From a virus, in the IMG/VR virus record IMGVR_UViG_3300037882_002640, positions 30,811 through 94,810 of that record: a stretch of 64,000 nt of DNA. One strand, given 5' to 3'. The position numbers and the translations under genes are program-made. Of this stretch, positions 3 through 57,427 are shown piece by piece (the first letter of the stretch is position 1; each line of letters starts with the position of its first letter). The notes under the pieces were generated by a model, which was not told the origin of the DNA, searched no databases, and worked only from the letters and a program-made list of their open reading frames with translations.

Positions 3-3000
3 TCACTTAGTTATGATGCTTGGGTTAGAGGTGTAGTGGGGGAAAACTACAGTGATGCTAAGACTGCTTTTGATTTCTATGAGCAATCTAATTTTGTTAA
101 ATCACTAGTTGGCGCTGTGTCTTCTCTAAGAAGGAACAGACCCGCTGTTGGTGTGAGAACTTACGATGAAGGAGTCTACAAGACTAGTTACATAGGTGTA
201 AAAGAATCTGGAGCTCGTGCTGTACTTGAGAATGATATTATCAATGGTTTCATGAGGGCTAATGATAAGGCAGATAAGAAGATATTCAGTGACGAGATTC
301 TAAAAGAACTCGCTAATTTCAAGTTCAGTGAAGACTACGATACTACCTACAACCTTGCTAAAAGACTGCTCTTAACGTTTGGTATCAAGATTAAGAAGGG
401 AGATGCGTCTTCACTGGAACTTCAGAACTTCATAAAAAGATCTAAGACCGTTTTACCTAAGATAAACGAGAAGACTGACACCCCTTACAATGTTATTACC
501 AACGAATCTAGTTTAATTAGTTTGATTATTGAAGCTGCATCCACAACGGCTAATCTAGTCCAGCCTACCTCATTTATGCGGGGAGATGGTAAGAAAGCCT
601 TCTTGTGGGTTGATGCTTCGTATCAAACATCCATCCTCACATCTATTGTAAACTCGATAAACGGGTTGAAGGGTATGAGGACTAGGTACTTCAGTATCAA
701 CAAAGGAGAATTAAAGTCTACTTCCCCATTCCTTACGAACAATATATTCTTTAATGGCTTATCTAGGATATATTCATTTTTAGATCATGATTCTATAAAA
801 TGGAAGGGTAGAGAAGAGAACGCTAAGATTCTACATCGTGAGGGTCCAACAGAAGCCTTGATACGGGCATTTGATTTAGGTTTTATAAACAAGGCTGCTA
901 ATGGTGATACTTATATTCAATTCCTACCAATACCTTCTAATAGAAGAACTATTAATGGAGTTGAGGTAAGTAGGCTTTCACCTAAACAATTAGATTCTGC
1001 CTTAATGGGTTTAATCAAATCCCAAAAGAATCGACCTGAACCTACAGGTAAACTTGCTAACAATGATAACTACCTTAAGAATTACAAGAAATTTAATCTT
1101 CCTGGTCTAGATGGACTGGATGTCAACTCCCTTACTGAAGCAGAAGCTTTGAAGAAGTTGAAAGAAGCACTCGCAGAGATTAAGGAAGATTACAAGTCTA
1201 AAATACTTGAGTACCTTGTTCGGGAATCTACTGGAACTGAGGTTAGTGAATCTAATTTGCAGGTAGATGTTGACTCTTTACTAAGGACTTACACTAAGAT
1301 TAGTAGCAAGAAAGCTAACTTATCTAGAGCTGGTGAGTACCGTAAGAAATTAGCTGCATATAAAGCAGAGATTGATAAACTTAGTTTAGCTGGTGATACC
1401 GATGCAGCTTTAAAGATTACTGAAGAGGCTAATGAGTTTGTTAAGAGTAGAACCGCATCTCTAAATGATATTCTGGACACTGTGGTTGAGAATTTTGTAG
1501 CAAATCATGTTGTAAACTCTTATAACCTTTCTCAGATGCTTTATGGGGATGGCACCTTCTACAAATCAAAAGAAGATTTAACTAAACGTATTCAAGTATT
1601 TACTGCAACTGGTGATGTACCTATTGTAGACGAAGCGGATGGTTATCCACCAGTATCTAGGATTGGTGTAATTCAAGACATAGAATCTGCTTTGGAAGAG
1701 TTAGAAGATATGAGAGATGAGGCTGCTAGAGAAACAGTTAATGAAGCGGATGGGCAAGGATTCATGTTACCAGAGGCTTACGAACAGCTCGCAAAGGCTC
1801 GTGGTAGGCATACTGAAGATGACATTACTCTTAAGACAGTGTACTCATCAACTGATGAACTTGGCATACCAACCCTCCTCAAGTATTCCATCATTGTTCT
1901 TACTGACGAGCTTATTGGGTACAACGCTGGTAAACCTATTAATGTTGCCTTACACAACTTAAGGGAAGCAATGCGCAACCCTGCAGACGGTAAGGGGAGG
2001 TTAGACCAAGCTATATTTTCATCTGGTGTTAAATCAGGTGGTCCAAGCAATAAGAACCAGGCTAGGGTTAACATGGAGGACATGAGTATATCATTCCAAG
2101 ATTCTTCAATTATCAGTATTGACAATCGTCACTTTAGGTTCCAGTTGAATCCTGCGAGTGAAGTTGAGAAGACTGTGGCTAACCCGTCACAGATAACTGC
2201 CTTTATAGACAGCAATGGTATCAACCCAAACGAAGCTTATGAAGTACATAAGTTGAATGCAGGTATAATGGCTGTGGGTATGCGATTGATTTCACATAAG
2301 TTGGGTATATCAAGGAAAGGAAGACTTACCAAATCTTCAGAGAATGTAATGCGTAAAAGAGCAATACAAGCAAATGAAGGTATGACGGGTAAGGAATCTT
2401 TAGTGAATGCGTTAGCCGCTAAACGTAATGGTAAGTACTCCGTATCTCTTAACCTACCTATGATTGGAGATGGTCTGGTATCATCCTTAGCCTCTATTGT
2501 TTCTTCTTCTACAGTTGGATTTCGATTTCCAGGCTCTAAGCTTGTTCTTCAATCAGAATTCGGTACATATACCAATACTAAGGAGAAACTCAAGTTCAAA
2601 GATAAAGATGGCTTTACAGAAGTAATGCTTCCAGAAGTCTTCAGGGAGTTCCTGTCAGAAGGTGATGTAGTTGCTAATGATGCAATGGTTGGATTCCGTA
2701 TTCCATCCACAAACTACCACTCTGCTATTGCTCTAAGGGTAGTAGGATTCTATAAAGTTCCACCAGGTTCTGCAGGTAATATTGTGATTGCTCCTGCTGC
2801 ACTTGTGTTCTATCATGGTTCAGACTTTGACGTTGACTCTCTATTTCTTATTAAAAAGGATAAACTTAAAGAGGATATATCATTAGACACCATCATCTCC
2901 AAGTACACTAAAGACAAGACTTCCTTGAAGTTTAAGAAAGGGGATAGGATTGGCGCTGATAAGACTATAGATATGGTTGGAGGACTTAAGTTAACTGAGT

Positions 3001-9700: not shown

Positions 9701-11068
9701 GATAAGCTATCCTCTATACTAGGCGTTCCTAAGGGAGAATATGAGGTTAACCAAGATAAGATTGCAAGAGCTTTAAAGACAGGTCTTGGCTTTACAACCA
9801 TGGCGTTCAAAACTGTAACTGCAACTAAGAACTTTGCGATTATATCCTTTACTAATGGTACTAAAATCCTCTCTCAATTCCTCTCTAAGAGATTTGGGGT
9901 AGAATCTAATGATGATGACTTTACTAAAGGAACTGCCTTAGCCTTAAAGGAGATGACTAATTATTGGAAGGATTGGATGTTAGGTAAACAGAAACAGAAT
10001 AAACTTTACCTCTTATCAGAACATTTAAATTGGATGCCAGATAACTTTGCTTATGGTAAGGCTAAGAATAACCTTCTTAGAGATATATCTAAACCAACTA
10101 TTGGGGGTACTGCCTATATGTTCCATAATTTCACTGAAACATATGGCGCTTTAACCCATCTTGCTGCTGCTCTTAACTCCTCTTTTGTGCTGGTGAATGG
10201 GAAGAAAACTTCTCTTTATGATGCTTATGATGTAGTTAATGGAGAAGTGGTTTGGAAAGGGGGTACTAGAGGTGTGAATACTCTAGGGCAAGAACTAACT
10301 GAGTTAGATGCTAATGAGGTTAAGTCCTTTAAGAGGATATACGAAAGAACCCAAGGTTCCTACCGAGCTGAGGAAAGAACTGCAATGGAATACCACATTT
10401 TAGGGCAGTTTGTGATGCAGTTTAAAAAGTACTTCTACACCTATGCTAAAAACCAGTTTCAATCTGAATTAGAAGATCCAACTATGGGCAGGTATGTAGC
10501 TAATAAGGATATTACCAGGCCTGATGGCCTAACTACTTTCGAGTGGGAGTCTGAGATAATGAAGGGAAGGTTAAACACTCTTGTTGGCTCTTTGATACTT
10601 GCAGGTAAGTCAGGTAAATTTATACGTGGCGGTAAGCAGGGAAAAGGCGATAAGAAAAGACTTGCTGAACTTCTCTCTACTGCTATATTCATGACCTTAC
10701 TCTACTGGCTGCTAGTAGGCTTTGATGACGATGAGGACGAATCTCCACGAGAAAGAATCTATCGCTCACTCATTTACGACATATCACAAGGTTTAAATGT
10801 TAGAGATTATTTGTCAACAGCTACTGAACCAGTAGTACTTTTTACCAGAGGTTCCCAACTTGTTAAAGCCACTCTTGATTTAATGACTGTGAGTGGGGAG
10901 ACTTCAAAAGGTAAATCAGACAGAAGGAAAGCGCGTAGAACCATTGAGAAGACAGTACCATTCTTATCTAATAAAGATATGATGACTGAACTTCTATCTA
11001 ATGCTAAAATAAAAAGCACAGAAAGTTTCTGGGATAAACTATTCACAGATTCAAGTACTAAGCGGTAA
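6710..11068 (+). CDS. Giant virion/ejected protein with HExxH zincin-like motif, PD-(D/E)xK-like motif and hydrophobic segments
   Basis: ATG at 6710 overlaps the RNAP stop (TAATG). Motifs PFHEYFH and ADLITEK...LVDFKSG; hydrophobic stretches ATLSILFGVATLNPFILGMGIAGAYAV and AIFMTLLYWLLVGF. Confidence 0.65.
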   Translation: MICPINKKVEGLKAPPPIKSPLRDLIKEQLLTYKKYFRENYPELKDGNLTKSINYFYNPVKDLRGRVAGNNIITNNTVVSIFPKGTPDTKPNSNLIFVLDMMKSRFNFPYIIVHEPESNFKGKYLNIDGQKTVVINTAHATDDTPFHEYFHPFVRLMKNENPELFSLIAKEASFLKMEEEEAVTEYLGKVAASTYRNSLFHKFIDFVSRVLSEYFGVPFRYNPSDTVKELVDRLLVTGADVSSENTLSEAFQLLNTIDNTTGVLSKEDRRTDILGKLKSLTKDFTTDDTTDYYTSPTGTFRRLTSFVSSKEKGAFTTVFANFKSWDANHKAALKYKAENLDKSQKITINGTELTFDELVQAYELNEKTPILIGKLTHAYIEYLLTKSREALAKTESYAAALGVPYIDLDKHPNLREIHDNFGEIVRLSGITIGEKQSKFDDNIGSEVTLKSDILKDSEGYNLASTADLITEKFNGDIGLVDFKSGNITSNYSTSIFMPHGAKFGVRDTKLNHAFMELALRAIMIKEANPDAKFSYLRIVKTSKYGHHEMYEGELELFLNVIGNYYKTTNPSVYAQLEEKGLLDVNNYQGTSMSSLKYYSKIQGKSREESIAIINSELDRLHSIPFTGKQPDYIREGIKELTEVRLELEGIKDIKADLTTDKGFMAKISTLSDLDKKSIKGLNKLLIEARDKETKEVGTIFNQWDKLLEDVYAERPNYGSKKQMIGKTAATLSILFGVATLNPFILGMGIAGAYAVRRSIQNPKDAFGFMYVKSTDPDRPGYFLNNTDSHNGVKLTKAERSLRDYYKAKLASLYQDSMSVVVDMKGSMEITKAMAMRMPPTLPDNFIVRPPKTLDEYKAESELLSSFFGVKDYLKHTMAANVVSLLERDAGISQKDSLYYPVKNFYTSGKVVESEMHSFDADLGFKMMVGNLVHKKHFDTLYPVAQGVINIVEDATTPDGRKALPNILEALDRHVTMQVHSKTSEVRFRSTPITMKVGDKLSSILGVPKGEYEVNQDKIARALKTGLGFTTMAFKTVTATKNFAIISFTNGTKILSQFLSKRFGVESNDDDFTKGTALALKEMTNYWKDWMLGKQKQNKLYLLSEHLNWMPDNFAYGKAKNNLLRDISKPTIGGTAYMFHNFTETYGALTHLAAALNSSFVLVNGKKTSLYDAYDVVNGEVVWKGGTRGVNTLGQELTELDANEVKSFKRIYERTQGSYRAEERTAMEYHILGQFVMQFKKYFYTYAKNQFQSELEDPTMGRYVANKDITRPDGLTTFEWESEIMKGRLNTLVGSLILAGKSGKFIRGGKQGKGDKKRLAELLSTAIFMTLLYWLLVGFDDDEDESPRERIYRSLIYDISQGLNVRDYLSTATEPVVLFTRGSQLVKATLDLMTVSGETSKGKSDRRKARRTIEKTVPFLSNKDMMTELLSNAKIKSTESFWDKLFTDSSTKR

Positions 11069-30753: not shown

Positions 30754-31328
30754 AGCGTTCCGTTTACTTCACACATGATTACTCGGTTTATGTGGGAAGG
30801 TAAGCCAATTAGGGGCTCTTGGGCATTTCTGCTTATATGCTCATGTAGCCACATTTTCTTACCCCTTCTTGTCAGCTGATAACGTACAATGATTTCAAAC
30901 ATAGACACCGCGTATTGCGGAGCCAGAAAATCCATCATTCTACCTACATCAGCCTCGAAGTACTTGATTTCGTCGTCTACCTCTATTTGTTCTTTATCTC
31001 CCACCATTTGGTGATGGTATCTGTTATTCCACTTATATATGATTAAATCACACTTTGACTCCTCATCTCTGAAGACGTTAGGGCCAAATAGTGGTTTTAA
31101 CATGTAATCTTCTGCATAGTCTTTATGGTACAACGCGTAGTACATTGGATGTAGATGGTTCCAATATATGCAGAATGGGAAGATAAAACAGGGAAGTGTA
31201 AACTTAATACCATTAACAGCAACCTCAAGTATTTGAGTCTTTTCGTTTTTTGATATTATTTCTACACTTCCCTTGAATGTGGCTTCTCTAGGCAGTTGGA
31301 CCGCTGCCTTTTGCTTGTGCCTGGTCAT
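30717..31328 (-). CDS. Hypothetical protein
   Basis: 203-aa ORF in the operon. Confidence 0.6.
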   Translation of the reverse strand: MTRHKQKAAVQLPREATFKGSVEIISKNEKTQILEVAVNGIKFTLPCFIFPFCIYWNHLHPMYYALYHKDYAEDYMLKPLFGPNVFRDEESKCDLIIYKWNNRYHHQMVGDKEQIEVDDEIKYFEADVGRMMDFLAPQYAVSMFEIIVRYQLTRRGKKMWLHEHISRNAQEPLIGLPSHINRVIMCEVNGTLWRIPIQVLHIK

Positions 31329-44210: not shown

Positions 44211-44271
44211 GATTATGTTAGTTTTTTATTTGCTCTTGTAGCATAGCTGTTAAAAATTAATAAATAGTTAG

Positions 44272-44350
44272 TGCCCCGTGCTGGACTCGAACCAGCTACC
44301 TACTGACTCCAAATTGAAGGCAGTTGCTCTATCCTCTGAGCTAACAGGGC
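44272..44350 (-). tRNA. tRNA-like gene with UCA (opal) anticodon and enlarged 13-nt anticodon loop
   Basis: GCCCTGT TA GCTC AGAGGATA GAGC A ACTGC CTTCAATTTGGAG TCAGT AGGTA GCTGG TTCGAGT CCAGC ACGGGGC A. Confidence 0.7.
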
Positions 44351-45718: not shown

Positions 45719-45955
45719 TTACCGCGTTTTGGTCGAATAGTTCGGCGGCAGTGTATAGTCTATCAAATCTACGAAGAGAGTCCCGTAAGACTCTTGTACA
45801 AGTCTTAGCACTTCCGCATCCTCAATGCGGTCTAAATATTTTTCTTCTAAAAGTATAGAAGCCTCTTCTGGCTCCCCTAATGGTTTCTCTTCCTCATCAG
45901 GGGAGATTCTTTGGACTATTACTTTTACTTTTACGACTGCGTTGTGTTCGGTCAT
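45719..45955 (-). CDS. Hypothetical protein
   Basis: 78-aa ATG ORF. Confidence 0.6.
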   Translation of the reverse strand: MTEHNAVVKVKVIVQRISPDEEEKPLGEPEEASILLEEKYLDRIEDAEVLRLVQESYGTLFVDLIDYTLPPNYSTKTR

Positions 45956-45986: not shown

Positions 45987-46030
45987 TACTGTTTCGATCC
46001 TCAATTAGATCATCATCAGGTTGAACAGTA
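45987..46030 (-). ncRNA. Hammerhead-like RNA (type III arrangement) lacking a normal stem I
   Basis: TACTG TT CAAC CTGATGA T GATC TAATTGAG GATC GAAA CAGTA. Confidence 0.55.
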
Positions 46031-46116
46031 GTCCAACGACAGTTAAGCATCTCATTTTGCAACAAGATGCTTAATTTATTATATTATTTGAGTTATTTCC
46101 CACTTTTCTAACTTAG

Positions 46117-46152
46117 TACCCCGTACAGGACTCGAACCTGTGACCATACGTT
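46117..46152 (-). pseudogene. Isolated tRNA 3' half
   Basis: AACGTAT GGTC ACAGG TTCGAGT CCTGT ACGGGGT A; no matching 5' half was seen upstream. Confidence 0.6.
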
Positions 46153-46343
46153 AGTCTTTCTCATTCTTTACGAAAGAACAACTCTCTATTTTCAAGAGTT
46201 GATAAGAAAAAAAATAAATCAGTTGCATAGCCCTTGAATTTAATCACCGGGCCAGTTCCTTTGAGCGAGAGACTCTTTTATTGAGTTGCGCTGCTGGACA
46301 ATTTTGTTAAGGCACTTTATCTCTTGCCCCAACTGATTTAAAT

Positions 46344-46378: not shown

Positions 46379-46744
46379 CACTTACCTTCATTTTTTGATT
46401 GAGTAAACGGGTTGCCTATAGAAAAATTTCTTCAAGTTCTTTAAGAACCTGTTTCAGGGTAGACCGCCAAACTGGCGTGTCGAATTTTTTCTGGAGTAGT
46501 CCTTTGACTTCCTCCAAAATCTGAGACTCTTCGATTTTTAGTTCTTCTAACCCGGCTATTGCTCCTTCCGCGTAAGAAAAAATTATACTGTATCTCTATT
46601 CTGTCATAATATTTTGAGTGAAATTAAGTTAAAAATCCCCGATTCCAGACTACACTGCTTTAAGTTTAATGCGCGGGTTTACGAGCCCTCATAGGCAGTG
46701 CGCGGTAGCCGTGTGTTGGAATCGGGGTTAAATGTGAAACTGGA

Positions 46745-47581
46745 TTAGCAGTCTAAGTTAATGATTGTAGAGTCCTCTGCTTGTGCAGTGGTTTTACGGT
46801 CACCACCACCTCTGCGGGGTTGAGGAGGGTTGATTATCTCGTCTATTACCTTGCGAAACTCCCAAGGGAAGTCGAACTCGGCACATTTCATAGTGCCATT
46901 CACGTTCAAAACTCCATACTTGCAACCCTCGAAAGAAAGGCTGCCGCGTCCAGCCCATTCAGATGGGTTTTGAACTACAGTGAAGAATTCACTTCTTTCG
47001 ATTCTACTTTCTGGTACTGGAACGTAATAGTTCCACCCCTTGAGTCGATAAATCTCTTTGTTTTTTAGGTACACAAACCCACGAGAATGTGCAAGGACGG
47101 ATTCAACAACAGTCTCTCTTTCTGCCCGAATATCAGGTAGAAGAGAGTACAACACTCCACGGCAGAATGCGGGGATTAAGAAAGTCTGGAGGACATAGGA
47201 GTCCTCCACCTCTAAAATAGTGCTCACTCTGGTGTTTAGAACCTCAGCCCCAACGCCTTCCAAATATTCCCCCAAAGTAGTGATGAAACATCCTTGGAAG
47301 GATACCTCCTTCCAATTTAGCGATTCGTTGAAGAAACCTTCTTGTGCGAAGGAAGTTTTGGTGAAATAGATGAATTCACAGCCCCCCTCAAAGAAAGGCA
47401 CTATGAATTGTATGTACTCATTGTCATCTGTTGTGACCAGTCCCGATATCGGCACTTGGCAGGATTCACCTGCCGCGTACTCGGATTTTAACTGATTACC
47501 CAACCGCGTTGGGAGAGTGGCATCGAAGAGTATTTTCATACCCGTGTATCCACCCTGTGTTTTATTGAGTGTAATTTTCAT
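46745..47581 (-). CDS. Hypothetical protein
   Basis: True start is probably MKITLNK at 47581; the ORF-track start lies inside a tRNA-like gene. Confidence 0.7.
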   Translation of the reverse strand: MKITLNKTQGGYTGMKILFDATLPTRLGNQLKSEYAAGESCQVPISGLVTTDDNEYIQFIVPFFEGGCEFIYFTKTSFAQEGFFNESLNWKEVSFQGCFITTLGEYLEGVGAEVLNTRVSTILEVEDSYVLQTFLIPAFCRGVLYSLLPDIRAERETVVESVLAHSRGFVYLKNKEIYRLKGWNYYVPVPESRIERSEFFTVVQNPSEWAGRGSLSFEGCKYGVLNVNGTMKCAEFDFPWEFRKVIDEIINPPQPRRGGGDRKTTAQAEDSTIINLDC

Positions 47582-47613
47582 AATAAAGATGAATAATAAA
47601 GATGAATAAATAG

Positions 47614-47692
47614 TGACCCAAACAGGACTCGAACCTGCATACTCCAATTACTCAGTTAACGACCGCTTAGAAGGCGGTTGAGATATTGGGCC
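47614..47692 (-). tRNA. Non-canonical tRNA-Arg(TCT)-like RNA with no standard D-arm and a long variable region
   Basis: GGCCCAA TATCTCA ACCGC CTTCTAA GCGGT CGTTAACTGAGTAATTGGAGTAT GCAGG TTCGAGT CCTGT TTGGGTC A. Confidence 0.65.
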
Positions 47693-48109: not shown

Positions 48110-48376
48110 TTAGGTTGTCATTTTGAGAATCTCGATAACATAACTTAATTCTACATCTTTGGTGATGTAGTTTGTTGTGCTAAAGGTTTCCTTCAGTGCG
48201 GACGCTATATTCCCCCTGTTCAGGTTGAAATATATCCACTCATGTTTTGTAGAAACAGGTTTGAACCCAACTTCGAGTATTGCTACTACTTGATGGGTTG
48301 TTGTTTCCTTACATGCTTGAAGGAATCCTAACTCTTGTTTATACGTACCTATGACGTATAGTTCTACAGTCTTCAT
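48110..48376 (-). CDS. Hypothetical protein
   Basis: Likely start MKTVELY in an ATGA overlap with the upstream stop. Confidence 0.55.
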   Translation of the reverse strand: MKTVELYVIGTYKQELGFLQACKETTTHQVVAILEVGFKPVSTKHEWIYFNLNRGNIASALKETFSTTNYITKDVELSYVIEILKMTT

Positions 48377-48567
48377 ATCTGAATCTTGTAGAATAAAGAG
48401 TCGAGGCTCTCTGTGCAGTATTGATCCCACACCAATAGTCCTTCCTGTAGAAGAAAGCACTCTGATTTATAACCTTGAGATTTAGCCCAAGGTGTCGGTA
48501 CCAATACCACAACATCTTTTGTTACGCCCAGTTTGATTCTGGCGTAACGTTGTAATGTTGTTAACAT
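48373..48567 (-). CDS. Small hypothetical protein whose ATG lies in stem I of a hammerhead ribozyme
   Basis: 64-aa ORF, ATGA-coupled to the downstream gene. Confidence 0.6.
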   Translation of the reverse strand: MLTTLQRYARIKLGVTKDVVVLVPTPWAKSQGYKSECFLLQEGLLVWDQYCTESLDSLFYKIQI

Positions 48568-48630
48568 GACTTATAAATAAGTTTCGGCACTTATATTTAT
48601 ACTCCTGTGCCATCATCAGATGTTTGGAGT
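48563..48630 (-). ncRNA. Type I hammerhead ribozyme
   Basis: AACAT CTGATGA T GGCAC loop GTGCC GAAA CTTAT TT ATAAG TC^ATGTT; loop II GGAGT can pair with upstream ACTCC. Confidence 0.85.
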
Positions 48631-48923
48631 TGGTAAGTACAAACTTACCTTTCACCTGTGAATTTTAAATAAACACCCAAGCATTGCAACCCAGAGGTTT
48701 CAGTGCATTATACTATGATTTCTCATAGTCAAGTCTTGCTTGGGTGTTCTATTCGCTGTTACTCAAGATGAGACATACTCGCCAGAATAGTTCACTGGCT
48801 TTTATCAGACCATCCTTGGTGGATTCTGACTTTCTTGTTATTTCACTTACAACCCCGAAAGGTAGAAATATACAAACGCCAGATTTCACCGCAGAAATCT
48901 GGGAAATGGCAGCAAATAGTGTT

Positions 48924-48995
48924 ACCACGATATAATTTCGCCTGTACCTCATCAGGTGGTTTTATCATTTATTTATACTCCCTGAATAGTACAGG
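48924..48995 (-). ncRNA. Minimal type I hammerhead ribozyme
   Basis: ACCAC CTGATGA GGTACAGGC GAAA TTATA TC^GTGGT; GTACAGG has a perfect upstream complement CCTGTAC at 48989-48995. Confidence 0.7.
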
Positions 48996-49060
48996 TTAGG
49001 AGTTAAAGAATTACTGCTATCATAGTTGAGAAAGCAGTAATTCTTTGCATATGGAAGAGT

Positions 49061-49337: not shown

Positions 49338-49865
49338 TTAGGCTGCCTTAACCCATGCGTTATGAGTATAGCGCGGTGAATTTGAAGGTGCGCAAAAGAT
49401 GTTGATATTGGTTTTACCACCGTTTGCCGCTGCATTGATAGCAATCTTAGCGGGTAACGAAAATGTAAACGTTTGGCCATTCATGTTAAAAGTTGTGTTA
49501 ACAACTAATTCCTGAATTGCTTTTCCCGTTTCGTCCGTTTTTACCTGTGCCAACCGTTCTACTCGTCCATTTGGACGGCCTTCGCCGTCCTTACCTTCGT
49601 AAATTACGTTGTTTACACGGTTTTTAATGGTTGATTCACCAGTGGCCAAAACCGTAATTTCAACCGTTTTTTGTGTCTGCTGTGTTGTACACATATCCAA
49701 TGCAGCCAAAGTCTGCATAAATGCAGCATCTTTGGTGGCCGTTGGTAGTGTATTGATTGATGCACCATCGAATTGGGTTGTTAGACCGTTTTCTTGTGCA
49801 AAGATAGCAAGTGTTGACGCGCTGGCTTTGAGGATTTCAGCGGGTGTCAGTGTGGATACTGCCAT
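49338..49865 (-). CDS. Hypothetical protein, first gene of the leftward unit
   Basis: 175-aa ATG ORF next to the divergence point. Confidence 0.75.
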   Translation of the reverse strand: MAVSTLTPAEILKASASTLAIFAQENGLTTQFDGASINTLPTATKDAAFMQTLAALDMCTTQQTQKTVEITVLATGESTIKNRVNNVIYEGKDGEGRPNGRVERLAQVKTDETGKAIQELVVNTTFNMNGQTFTFSLPAKIAINAAANGGKTNINIFCAPSNSPRYTHNAWVKAA

Positions 49866-55858: not shown

Positions 55859-57427
55859 ATGAAAAAAGTAATATTTAATCCCACTACAAGGGAACAACTC
55901 TTAGAAGGAGTTAAAACACTATCCGATGCTGTAGGCACAACCCTCGGACCTAAAGGCAATAATGTGGTTATCCAGAACTCTTTTGGCACTACTCTCGTCA
56001 CTAAAGATGGTGTGACTGTGGCTAAGAATATCGTGCTTGAAGATCCACTACAGAATATGGGTTGCGACATTATCAAACAAGCAGCTTCTAAGACCGCAGA
56101 CATCGCAGGTGACGGAACTACCACTGCAACTGTTTTAGCATATCATCTAGCTAAGAATGGTATGTATTTAGCTAAGAATGGGATATCTCCAATCAATATT
56201 AAACGGCAGTATGAACTCCTCTTACAAGAGGCTTTACTGTACCTACAGAAGGAGTCCAAAGCTGTAACACCTACAGATGTAATCAACATTGCTACCATCT
56301 CTGCAAATAACGATCCTGAACTTGGAAAGTTAATTGCTGAAGCTGTCTCTTATGCAAGCTCTTCTGGTTTAGTATCTGTAGAAGAATCCAAGACAGGTGA
56401 GACATACATTGATACTGTAGAGGGCTCAATCTTCGATAGAGGATTTGTTTCCCCCCTCTTTATTAATAACAATAAGAATACTGTAGTATTAGAAAACCCC
56501 ATCTTCCTTATTACTGATAAGAAGATTCGCACAGCTAATGAGATTGTCCCAGCAATGGAAATTGCATCTAAAGAAGGACGACCTTTGGTAGTTATTGCAG
56601 ATGAGATTGAAGCTCAAGCTCTCCAGTTACTTCTTATTAATAAGGTAAATGGACGTCTAAATTCAGTTGCCATTAAAGCTCCTGCATTTGGTAATCGTAG
56701 GCAAGAGATTCTAGAAGATTTATGTTCCCTAACATCCTCTACCTTAATTACTGAAAACCGAGGACTTAAACTTGAAGGAGTTACTGCTGAACATTTAGGT
56801 GAGGCTGGAAAGATTGTAGTTACCTCTGATGAGACTACCATTACTAAACCAGTGCATGCTTCCGATGTAGTTGACCGTATAGAAGGAATTAAGAGCAAAC
56901 TTAATGATAATCCTTCCTCTTACGATTTCGATAAGTTAACCGCTAGACTATCCCTACTACAAGGACAGGCTGCTGTTATACATGTTGGTGCTTTCACTGA
57001 GACTGAGATGTCTGAGAAAAAAGACAGAATTGATGATGCTCTTCGCGCTACAAGAGCAGCTTTAGAGAAAGGTTATGTAACTGGTGGTGGTTATACTCTT
57101 GTAAAGATTGCTAAACTACTTGGCCCAACTGACCCAGTTTCAGAAGCATTTATTGAAGCTTTGATTGCTCCAGCTTTACTGATACGATCTAATGCAGGTC
57201 AGACAGTTAGAGATATAATTGAGGAATACACTTTTAAAGGTGAATTTAATTCTCACACTATGGAGTTTAGTAATCTGCTGGAAGATGGAGTTATTGACCC
57301 CACACTTGTAACTGAGCAAGTGCTTAAAAATGCAGTATCTGCAGCTTGTATGATTCTTCTTTCAACAACAGCTGTTTACCCAATTGAGAAACCATACTCA
57401 CCTGGGAACTTAGAAGATTACCAATAA
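55859..57427 (+). CDS. groEL: Chaperonin GroEL
   Basis: TLGPKG, TKDGVTVA, AGDGTTTATVLA, KAPAFG, EKKDRIDDAL, GVIDP motifs. Confidence 0.95.
   Translation: MKKVIFNPTTREQLLEGVKTLSDAVGTTLGPKGNNVVIQNSFGTTLVTKDGVTVAKNIVLEDPLQNMGCDIIKQAASKTADIAGDGTTTATVLAYHLAKNGMYLAKNGISPINIKRQYELLLQEALLYLQKESKAVTPTDVINIATISANNDPELGKLIAEAVSYASSSGLVSVEESKTGETYIDTVEGSIFDRGFVSPLFINNNKNTVVLENPIFLITDKKIRTANEIVPAMEIASKEGRPLVVIADEIEAQALQLLLINKVNGRLNSVAIKAPAFGNRRQEILEDLCSLTSSTLITENRGLKLEGVTAEHLGEAGKIVVTSDETTITKPVHASDVVDRIEGIKSKLNDNPSSYDFDKLTARLSLLQGQAAVIHVGAFTETEMSEKKDRIDDALRATRAALEKGYVTGGGYTLVKIAKLLGPTDPVSEAFIEALIAPALLIRSNAGQTVRDIIEEYTFKGEFNSHTMEFSNLLEDGVIDPTLVTEQVLKNAVSAACMILLSTTAVYPIEKPYSPGNLEDYQ

Follow-up and report, generated by a model that had tools for sequence, protein, structure and literature searches.

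Is a hammerhead motif with very short stems II and III, set among the small genes and tRNAs of a phage, a working ribozyme and, if so, of what kind? No small ribozyme has been studied better than the hammerhead, and a crystal structure of its PK form came only in 2024. The motif in question, which we designate HH2, occupies positions 48924–49003 on the minus strand of the window, the 64,000-nt stretch analysed here, which corresponds to positions 30811–94810 of a 94.8-kb IMG/VR virus record (95% complete according to CheckV). The minus strand carries every gene between about 11.4 kb and 49.9 kb, and same-strand tRNAs and two further hammerheads lie within 3 kb of HH2; the nearer of these hammerheads (48563–48630) is referred to below as HH1. 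The sequence-only reading described HH2 as a minimal hammerhead with a 7-nt complement upstream. The hammerhead stands, as does the importance of the complement; what escaped recognition is that the complement is the pseudoknot strand of the known PK/RAGATH-1 architecture, and 'minimal' therefore undersells the element. Our preferred interpretation, to which we assign a probability of roughly 0.78, is that HH2 is a cis-acting PK/RAGATH-1 hammerhead of a compact sub-form lying beyond Rfam's model. It would be transcribed leftward, from the minus strand, together with the small-gene and tRNA region of this roughly 95-kb uncultured phage.

Architecture of HH2 and its likeness to the PK hammerhead

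A search of the window at the Rfam gathering thresholds returns three tRNAs and nothing else. In a permissive Rfam scan of 131 nt, 48924–48993 aligns to RF03152 over its full length with a score of 14.9 bits (cut-off 56.3); as this is the noise level for this genome, in which a site lacking the core reaches 14.6 bits, the architecture was examined directly.

All parts of HH2 lie on the minus strand, those described in the sequence-only reading at the coordinates given there. From the 5' end, helix IV (P0) is formed by ACUCCU (48998–49003) and GGGAGU (48977–48982), and its 15-nt loop contains CCUGUAC (48989–48995), located 28 nt 5' of stem I. The latter is the 7-nt complement noted earlier, and it matches the whole of loop II perfectly. 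There follows a 16-nt linker, AUAAAUAAAUGAUAAA (48961–48976), the first five bases of which constitute the AUAAA strand. Stem I pairs ACCAC (48956–48960) with GUGGU (48924–48928) and leads directly into the intact catalytic core C3–A9, CUGAUGA (48949–48955). Stem II (48940–48948) is reduced to a single pair, G10.1 (48948) with C11.1 (48940), closing the 7-nt loop II, GUACAGG (48941–48947), which supplies the 3' strand of the pseudoknot. Within 48930–48939, G12, A13 and A14 belong to GAAA (48936–48939), and stem III, AU-UAU-AU (48930–48936), comprises A15.1–U16.1 and a U–A pair around the loop UAU. C17 (48929) and the 3' strand of stem I complete the element (48924–48929), and hammerhead geometry predicts cleavage between 48929 and 48928, in agreement with the AUC cut site previously proposed. 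Stem I, the intact core, the 1-bp stem II and the 2-bp stem III were thus each found as described, and HH2 has every residue that the hammerhead core requires (C3 U4 G5 A6 N7 G8 A9, G12 A13 A14, A15.1–U16.1, and H17, which may not be G).

The reference point for this arrangement is the PK (RAGATH-1) hammerhead (Rfam RF03152), the crystal structure of which shows a pseudoknot in place of helix II, an additional helix IV and an AUA4 strand that stands between helices IV and I and occupies the minor groove of the former (Zhan et al. 2024; PMC11300833). From the family geometry, helix IV of HH2 (ACUCCU/GGGAGU) would form first, and the AUAAA strand would settle in its minor groove, a triplex role that we infer for HH2 from the crystal structure. 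Once the core had been made, all seven bases of loop II would pair with CCUGUAC to give a helix replacing stem II, and the 2-bp stem III and 5-bp stem I would close the junction. Cleavage, predicted to follow C48929, would leave nearly the whole ribozyme on the upstream RNA with a 2',3'-cyclic phosphate, and the downstream RNA would begin at G48928 with a 5'-OH.

About 20 phage copies of the classical PK family came out of a pattern search of IMG/VR, and 16 of them score 64–86 bits on RF03152; a further contig (L054) falls below the threshold despite having every feature of the family by inspection. The classical design was parsed from 13 distinct IMG/VR copies. Its 5' hairpin has 3–6 bp (in cleanly parsed copies) and a loop of typically 9 nt; next come an AUAAAA linker and then stem I, with about 5 bp (4–7), and stem II is one G–C pair. 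Stem III ranges from 4 to 13 bp in all but one of the 13 copies, where it has 3 bp. The pairs between hairpin loop and loop II covary: CCAAG/CUUGG, CCUAG/CUAGG, CCCGG/CCGGG, CUAGGA/UCCUAG and UCCCAG/CUGGGA. HH2 shares with this family its type I connectivity, an identical core, and the G10.1–C11.1 pair closing a 7-nt loop, as a single G–C pair does in all 13 classical copies parsed. It also has the same loop–loop pairing, in which loop II meets the loop of a 5' hairpin (helix IV) that is itself tied to helix I; AUAAA again comes after helix IV, and stem I again measures about 5 bp. The closest classical copies, in L042 and L066, even read ACUC..GAGU-AUAAA, and L066 continues with ACCAU-CUGAUGAG.

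The departures are equally clear. The pseudoknot of HH2 has seven Watson–Crick pairs and takes in the whole loop, versus five to six pairs in the classical PK form; the helix IV loop has 14–15 nt in the HH2 form versus typically nine (8–9 in cleanly parsed copies); and the linker has 15–16 nt, about 11 of them beyond AUAAA, versus 3–11 (typically 5–8). Finally, stem III has 2 bp and a triloop, in contrast to the longer stems listed above. The HH2 form thereby takes the PK design further, with a total of three base pairs in stems II and III and a reliance on the 7-bp loop–loop helix.

The classical copies sit among tRNAs, Hatchet, Pistol, type III hammerhead and RAGATH-14 ribozymes in phage contigs of 96–190 kb (L041, L044, L052, L059 and L066). 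TAG codons occur inside the terminase match in four of five records with classical PK copies that were checked, which suggests TAG recoding in those phages. One contig, L068, has two classical copies flanking a 73-codon ORF; the first (9820–9897, plus strand; 75.6 bits) has the core CCGAUGA, in which U4 is replaced by C, and lies 310 nt upstream of the canonical copy.

Two further comparisons were considered. Penelope-like element hammerheads, as described in the portion of PMC5737381 that cites Lunse et al. (2016), have a short stem III and cleave as dimers, the palindromic stem III loop giving a long intermolecular helix. HH2 resembles the hammerheads of that account in its very short stem III, but it has a 7-bp intramolecular pseudoknot and its stem III is not palindromic; a dimer model was rejected by inspection, as AUUAUAU is not self-complementary and would form 2 + 2 pairs around three mismatches. 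An interpretation of HH2 as a non-circular block permutation of the kind described in PMC10085705 was also discarded, as CCUGUAC is not followed by GAAA.

Relatives and covariation

This phage has no close relatives and, therefore, there is no orthologous site to compare. A phage blastn search with the 1-kb region around HH2 found no match, IMG/VR contained no relatives of the neighbouring ORFs 49338–49865 and 46745–47647, the neighbouring ORFs had no PHROG or Pfam match, and P0001 had no homologue among 5.8 billion proteins. Relatives of the phage's GroEL-like protein reach about 40% identity at best, and are too distant to be of use for a non-coding comparison.

The relatives of HH2 came instead from a metagenome pattern scan, which required only GAGUAUAAA, 10–24 nt, CUGAUGAG, N7 and CGAAA, and demanded no pairing. 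There were five matches: two by chance, and three contigs (L145, L146 and L147) that depart from the classical design as HH2 does, in ways that the pattern had not specified. All three carry ACUCC/GGGAGU and a perfect 7-bp pseudoknot. The pseudoknot sequences differ in each (UCUGCAC/GUGCAGA, UCCACAC/GUGUGGA and UCCUACC/GGUAGGA, respectively). The linkers are 15–16 nt and stem I has 4–5 bp, reading GGUUC/GAACC in both L146 and L147. Stem III has 2 bp and a triloop in L146 (AC-AUA-GU) and L147 (AC-AAU-GU), and is irregular in L145; given that L146 and L147 have the same stem as HH2, a 2-bp stem III is a trait of the sub-form. Other searches yielded nothing of use. Blastn with the 80-nt element and with the L147 copy produced only noise; the sole match to an exact 20-mer of core plus loop II was an unrelated GC-rich contig; GGAGUAUAAAUA...CUGAUGA had 20 matches in IMG/VR, all by chance; and GGGAGUAU...core had none there. 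Of two scans of prokaryote genomes, the first returned no match; the second picked up two copies of the classical PK form, both from Bacteroidales contigs, and otherwise only chance matches. When a model was built from the four members and run on five phage records, nothing new emerged.

In the four-member alignment (HH2 and L145–L147), 97.6% of the pair cells are paired, versus 34–47% in controls with slid partners, and 11 of the 21 pairs change on both sides; none of 500 shuffles reaches any of these measures, although with four members known the statistics are thin. In the pseudoknot, 100% of the cells pair, with both partners altered in five of the seven pairs across the four members. In stem I, all five pairs change on both sides when HH2 is set against L145–L147, and the second pair of stem III shows a compensatory change from U–A to C–G. 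The covariation that the sequence-only reading had proposed looking for in relatives is present across four sequences. By contrast with these variable helices, ACUCC of helix IV and the AUAAA strand are invariant in all four members; the sixth pair of helix IV is U–G in three and C–G in one. These U–G pairs would become A–C if read on the plus strand, which identifies the minus strand as that of the ribozyme.

L145–L147 share the departures of HH2 from the classical design, and a search of them with RF03152 gave no match at E ≤ 1, so that the whole group misses the 56.3-bit threshold. Moreover, a comparison of the proteins flanking the sites in these contigs (and in L085, see below) with this genome gave no matches, the flanking proteins being unrelated. 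We therefore place HH2 in a conserved PK sub-form outside the catalogue; as far as sequence can tell, this is a conserved sub-form, and neither chance nor decay. HH2 itself is very probably a self-cutting RNA, judged from the same sequences. It follows that the current Rfam model overlooks real PK relatives, and four natural sequences with compensatory changes provide a test set for the minimum junction helix.

Predicted products of cleavage and the neighbouring ribozyme

One base before helix IV of HH2 ends a 17-bp hairpin (49005–49046, minus strand; inverted repeat I18, 94% complementary), which may terminate transcription or protect the 3' end of the upstream RNA. L146 and members of the classical PK family also have a hairpin or terminator immediately before the ribozyme, and HH2 resembles the latter in its setting as a whole, with a hairpin in front, small phage genes on either side and tRNAs close by. 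The predicted cut lies 20 nt before the AUG of a 100-codon ORF in L146 and 19 nt before that of an 88-codon lipoprotein-like ORF in L147, and neither contig has a second hammerhead within 1.5 kb. We infer that HH2 cleaves and that it serves a biological role, which, by analogy with these relatives, is likely to be 5'-end processing, which would separate the next unit from the RNA and hairpin ahead of it. It would be a further case of phages placing predicted self-cleaving RNAs ahead of small genes in tRNA-rich regions.

HH1 (48563–48630, minus strand) is a good type I hammerhead: each of its three stems has 5 bp, A9 is followed by an additional U, and the predicted cut is at GUC/AUG (48568/48567). 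ACUCC (48626–48630) pairs with GGAGU (48601–48605) in its loop II, an arrangement known from type I hammerheads in which a 5' extension of stem I forms a pseudoknot with loop II (Perreault et al. 2011; PMC3088659). The HH1 design is also found in a 110-kb phage contig (L085, about 2700–2800, plus strand), with a compensatory change to ACUCG/CGAGU. A type III reading of HH1, to which a weak 16.5-bit Rfam alignment corresponds, was rejected: stem I would have 3 bp and 2.1 would be unpaired. The predicted cut falls directly before the AUG of a 64-codon ORF (48373–48567, minus strand), which overlaps the next ORF (48110–48376, minus strand; MKTVELY...) by ATGA at 48373–48376; such an overlap points to real, coupled genes. 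Just upstream of HH1, TAAGUUUG (48640–48647, minus strand) fits the Bacteroidota −7 promoter motif, TAnnTTTG; with this promoter-like sequence adjoining it, HH1 may have its own transcript start.

HH2 has the same core as HH1 and the type I form of PMC3088659, and in each a pseudoknot braces stems I and II. HH1 and HH2 also share an ACUCC/GGAGU helix followed by AUAAAUA, within a 12-nt identity: the 12-mer GGAGUAUAAAUA has exactly two copies in the window, one per ribozyme. In HH2, it forms the 3' strand of helix IV and the putative triplex strand; in HH1, it lies inside loop II, its GGAGU pairing with the ACUCC just 5' of stem I. The two differ in how this helix is connected: HH1 has a normal 5-bp stem II and the helix joins the 5' flank to loop II, whereas in HH2 it is a separate hairpin, the loop of which gives one strand of the stem II replacement. 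The order of parts in HH1 is helix IV 5' strand, stem I 5' strand plus CUGAUGA, stem II 5' strand, helix IV 3' strand, AUAAA linker and stem II 3' strand; moving the block 'stem I 5' strand plus CUGAUGA' to a position after the linker would turn this into the order of HH2. The reordering recalls the non-circular permutations of PMC10085705, but it is not among the block orders given there. It is tempting, if rather doubtful, to regard HH1 and HH2 as two connectivities of one module, a natural non-circular permutation 336 nt apart, both cutting at start codons (AUG and GUG) to yield leaderless 5'-OH mRNAs by means of a ribozyme. Since HH1, a cousin of HH2, joins up the same helix IV and AUAAA module differently, the two provide a concrete pair for studying the interconversion of ribozyme topologies.

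The start codon at the HH2 cut bears on a variant of our main reading, in which cleavage leaves a 5'-OH-GUG that opens a 59-residue protein, just as HH1 cuts before AUG. A frame of 59 codons (48749–48928, minus strand; within a 67-aa ORF) does begin with GUG at the first base of the predicted 3' product, and we estimate the joint chance of this at about 0.1%. The parallel with HH1, whose 64-codon ORF ends in the ATGA overlap, also favours it, as does a terminator-like hairpin after the stop codon. The frame has a codon score of 0.16 bits per codon, however, which is not above that of the antisense frame and does not discriminate; no homologue of it was found, and there are no longer ORFs under code 4 or with TAG read as glutamine. 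The earlier statement that the excised piece has no convincing ORF was, then, half right: the frame opens exactly at the cut, but with neither a telling codon score nor a homologue. Moreover, the GUG is forced by stem I, and, with AUG 19–20 nt past the cut, the mRNAs of L146 and L147 would not be leaderless. Leaderless translation in Escherichia coli favours AUG and a 5' phosphate, which also counts against a 5'-OH-GUG. Overall, we consider this variant distinctly unlikely.

Competing readings and genomic setting

Could HH2 be a decayed, inactive copy, i.e. a former PK hammerhead that has lost most of stem III? The 2-bp stem, compared with at least 4 bp in the classical copies other than the single 3-bp one, would suit this explanation, as would the low Rfam score. 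In the nearest-neighbour model, stem III is destabilizing and the junction is predicted to be unstable. The most favourable nested fold (−21.6 kcal/mol) retains the pseudoknot helix at the expense of helix IV and stem I, although energy models of nested structures cannot rank the pseudoknotted fold thermodynamically. In that fold (48952–48985, minus strand), UCAGG from the loop and 3' strand of helix IV pairs with CCUGA from stem I and the core, and the model raises the possibility of an inactive conformer in competition with helix IV plus stem I. Against decay, every core base and all seven pseudoknot pairs are intact, and the 2-bp stem III with triloop recurs in L146 and L147, including the compensatory U–A to C–G change. 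Furthermore, weak stems III are reported to be common in active natural hammerheads, in which stems II of 1 bp are also documented (PMC3088659). Decay is, on balance, quite improbable.

A different reading takes HH1 and HH2 together: the sequence-only reading envisaged the excision of an RNA of about 360 nt and its circularization by an RtcB-type ligase, here taken to be that of the host, to give a structured non-coding RNA. The layout is real. The predicted cuts of HH2 (48929/48928) and HH1 (48568/48567) are on the same strand and bound 361 nt, and the piece (48568–48928) folds better than shuffles (z = −4.6), although this score takes in the body of HH1. Pairs of ribozymes around short prophage units are known (PMC3088659), and the two PK copies of L068 lie 310 nt apart. 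Excision would, however, require transcription through terminator-like structures: a 9-bp hairpin between the two ribozymes (48879–48902, minus strand), and a branched stem-loop with a 13-bp closing helix followed by UUUAUUU (48672–48749, minus strand; −31.7 kcal/mol, z = −5.4), which resembles the terminator-like end of a unit. As both intervene, co-transcription through to HH1 is not assured. Nor is joint excision a conserved feature, since L146 and L147 have a single ribozyme 19–20 nt before a protein gene; in L068, the unit is the 73-codon ORF. Excision of the piece together with HH1 is possible, and that part of the proposal retains some standing, but circularization is unsupported speculation: no RtcB or RNA-ligase domain was found in the 95%-complete phage record, and nothing joins or pairs the two ends. 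In ribozyme-bounded circular RNAs such as viroid-like RNAs and retrozymes, the ribozymes are alike, the ends are brought together and there is a route through a ligase; the 361-nt unit also has two same-strand ribozymes, but these differ in topology and no end-pairing helix is seen. We regard release and circularization of a 361-nt RNA as very improbable.

The paired layout has a precedent in the multiple ribozymes reported to flank genes and short units in prophages and phages (Perreault et al. 2011; PMC3088659). As there, two to three same-strand ribozymes within 3 kb flank short units in this window; unlike those, the ribozymes here are of different types, one each of the PK form, type I and type III. 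Such a layout does not in itself imply a circular RNA.

As regards chance, when the whole genome was scanned with a generic type I pattern, HH2, the 48563 ribozyme and two weak look-alikes were found. Of 3000 dinucleotide shuffles of the 94.8-kb genome, 14 contained the bare block CUGANGA-G-N7-C-GAAA and none contained it together with stems I and III; because this descriptor was partly composed after seeing the sequence, the covariation in three independent relatives is the stronger evidence. That the motif is a chance likeness, a plus-strand element or a stretch of some small coding frame is scarcely credible: a terminator-like plus-strand hairpin match (48938–48959), 41- and 67-codon ORFs overlapping the motif, and a covariance-model score at the noise level point that way, but they are outweighed by the shuffles, by compensatory changes in unrelated contigs that are RNA-like rather than protein-like, by U–G pairs that would be A–C on the plus strand and by the uniformly minus-strand genes from about 11.4 to 49.9 kb.

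Apart from HH2 as a PK hammerhead and HH1, the region contains other structured RNAs. A complete type III hammerhead (45988–46043, minus strand) is the sole type III match in the genome, with 0.03 expected per shuffle. It has stem III ACUGU/ACAGU, a cut at GUC/G (46038/46037), a stem I hairpin GUUGGAC-UACU-GUUCAAC, CUGAUGA, an extra U and stem II GAUC/GAUC; an ORF (45719–45955) begins about 30 nt after it. The branched stem-loop at 48672–48749 is one of three such RNAs on the minus strand, the others being at 46637–46727 (z = −3.9) and 46215–46340 (z = −3.6). All three have a closing helix of 11–13 bp followed by a U-rich tail and are without a reported Rfam match; they may be unusual terminators or small RNAs.

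The tRNAs of the region also show peculiarities. The tRNA at 44272–44350 has an enlarged anticodon loop, and the tRNA-like sequence at 47614–47692 is without a normal D-arm. A third copy of a sequence resembling the 3' half of a tRNA (46105–46141, minus strand), with a GGACTCGAACC T-arm, is 70–76% identical to the copies at 44260 and 47602, and is called by neither ARAGORN nor Rfam. Finally, the GroEL-like chaperonin is encoded by the phage itself at 55859–57427 on the plus strand (PHROG 5725, E = 6e-131), where it directly precedes the large terminase and portal genes.
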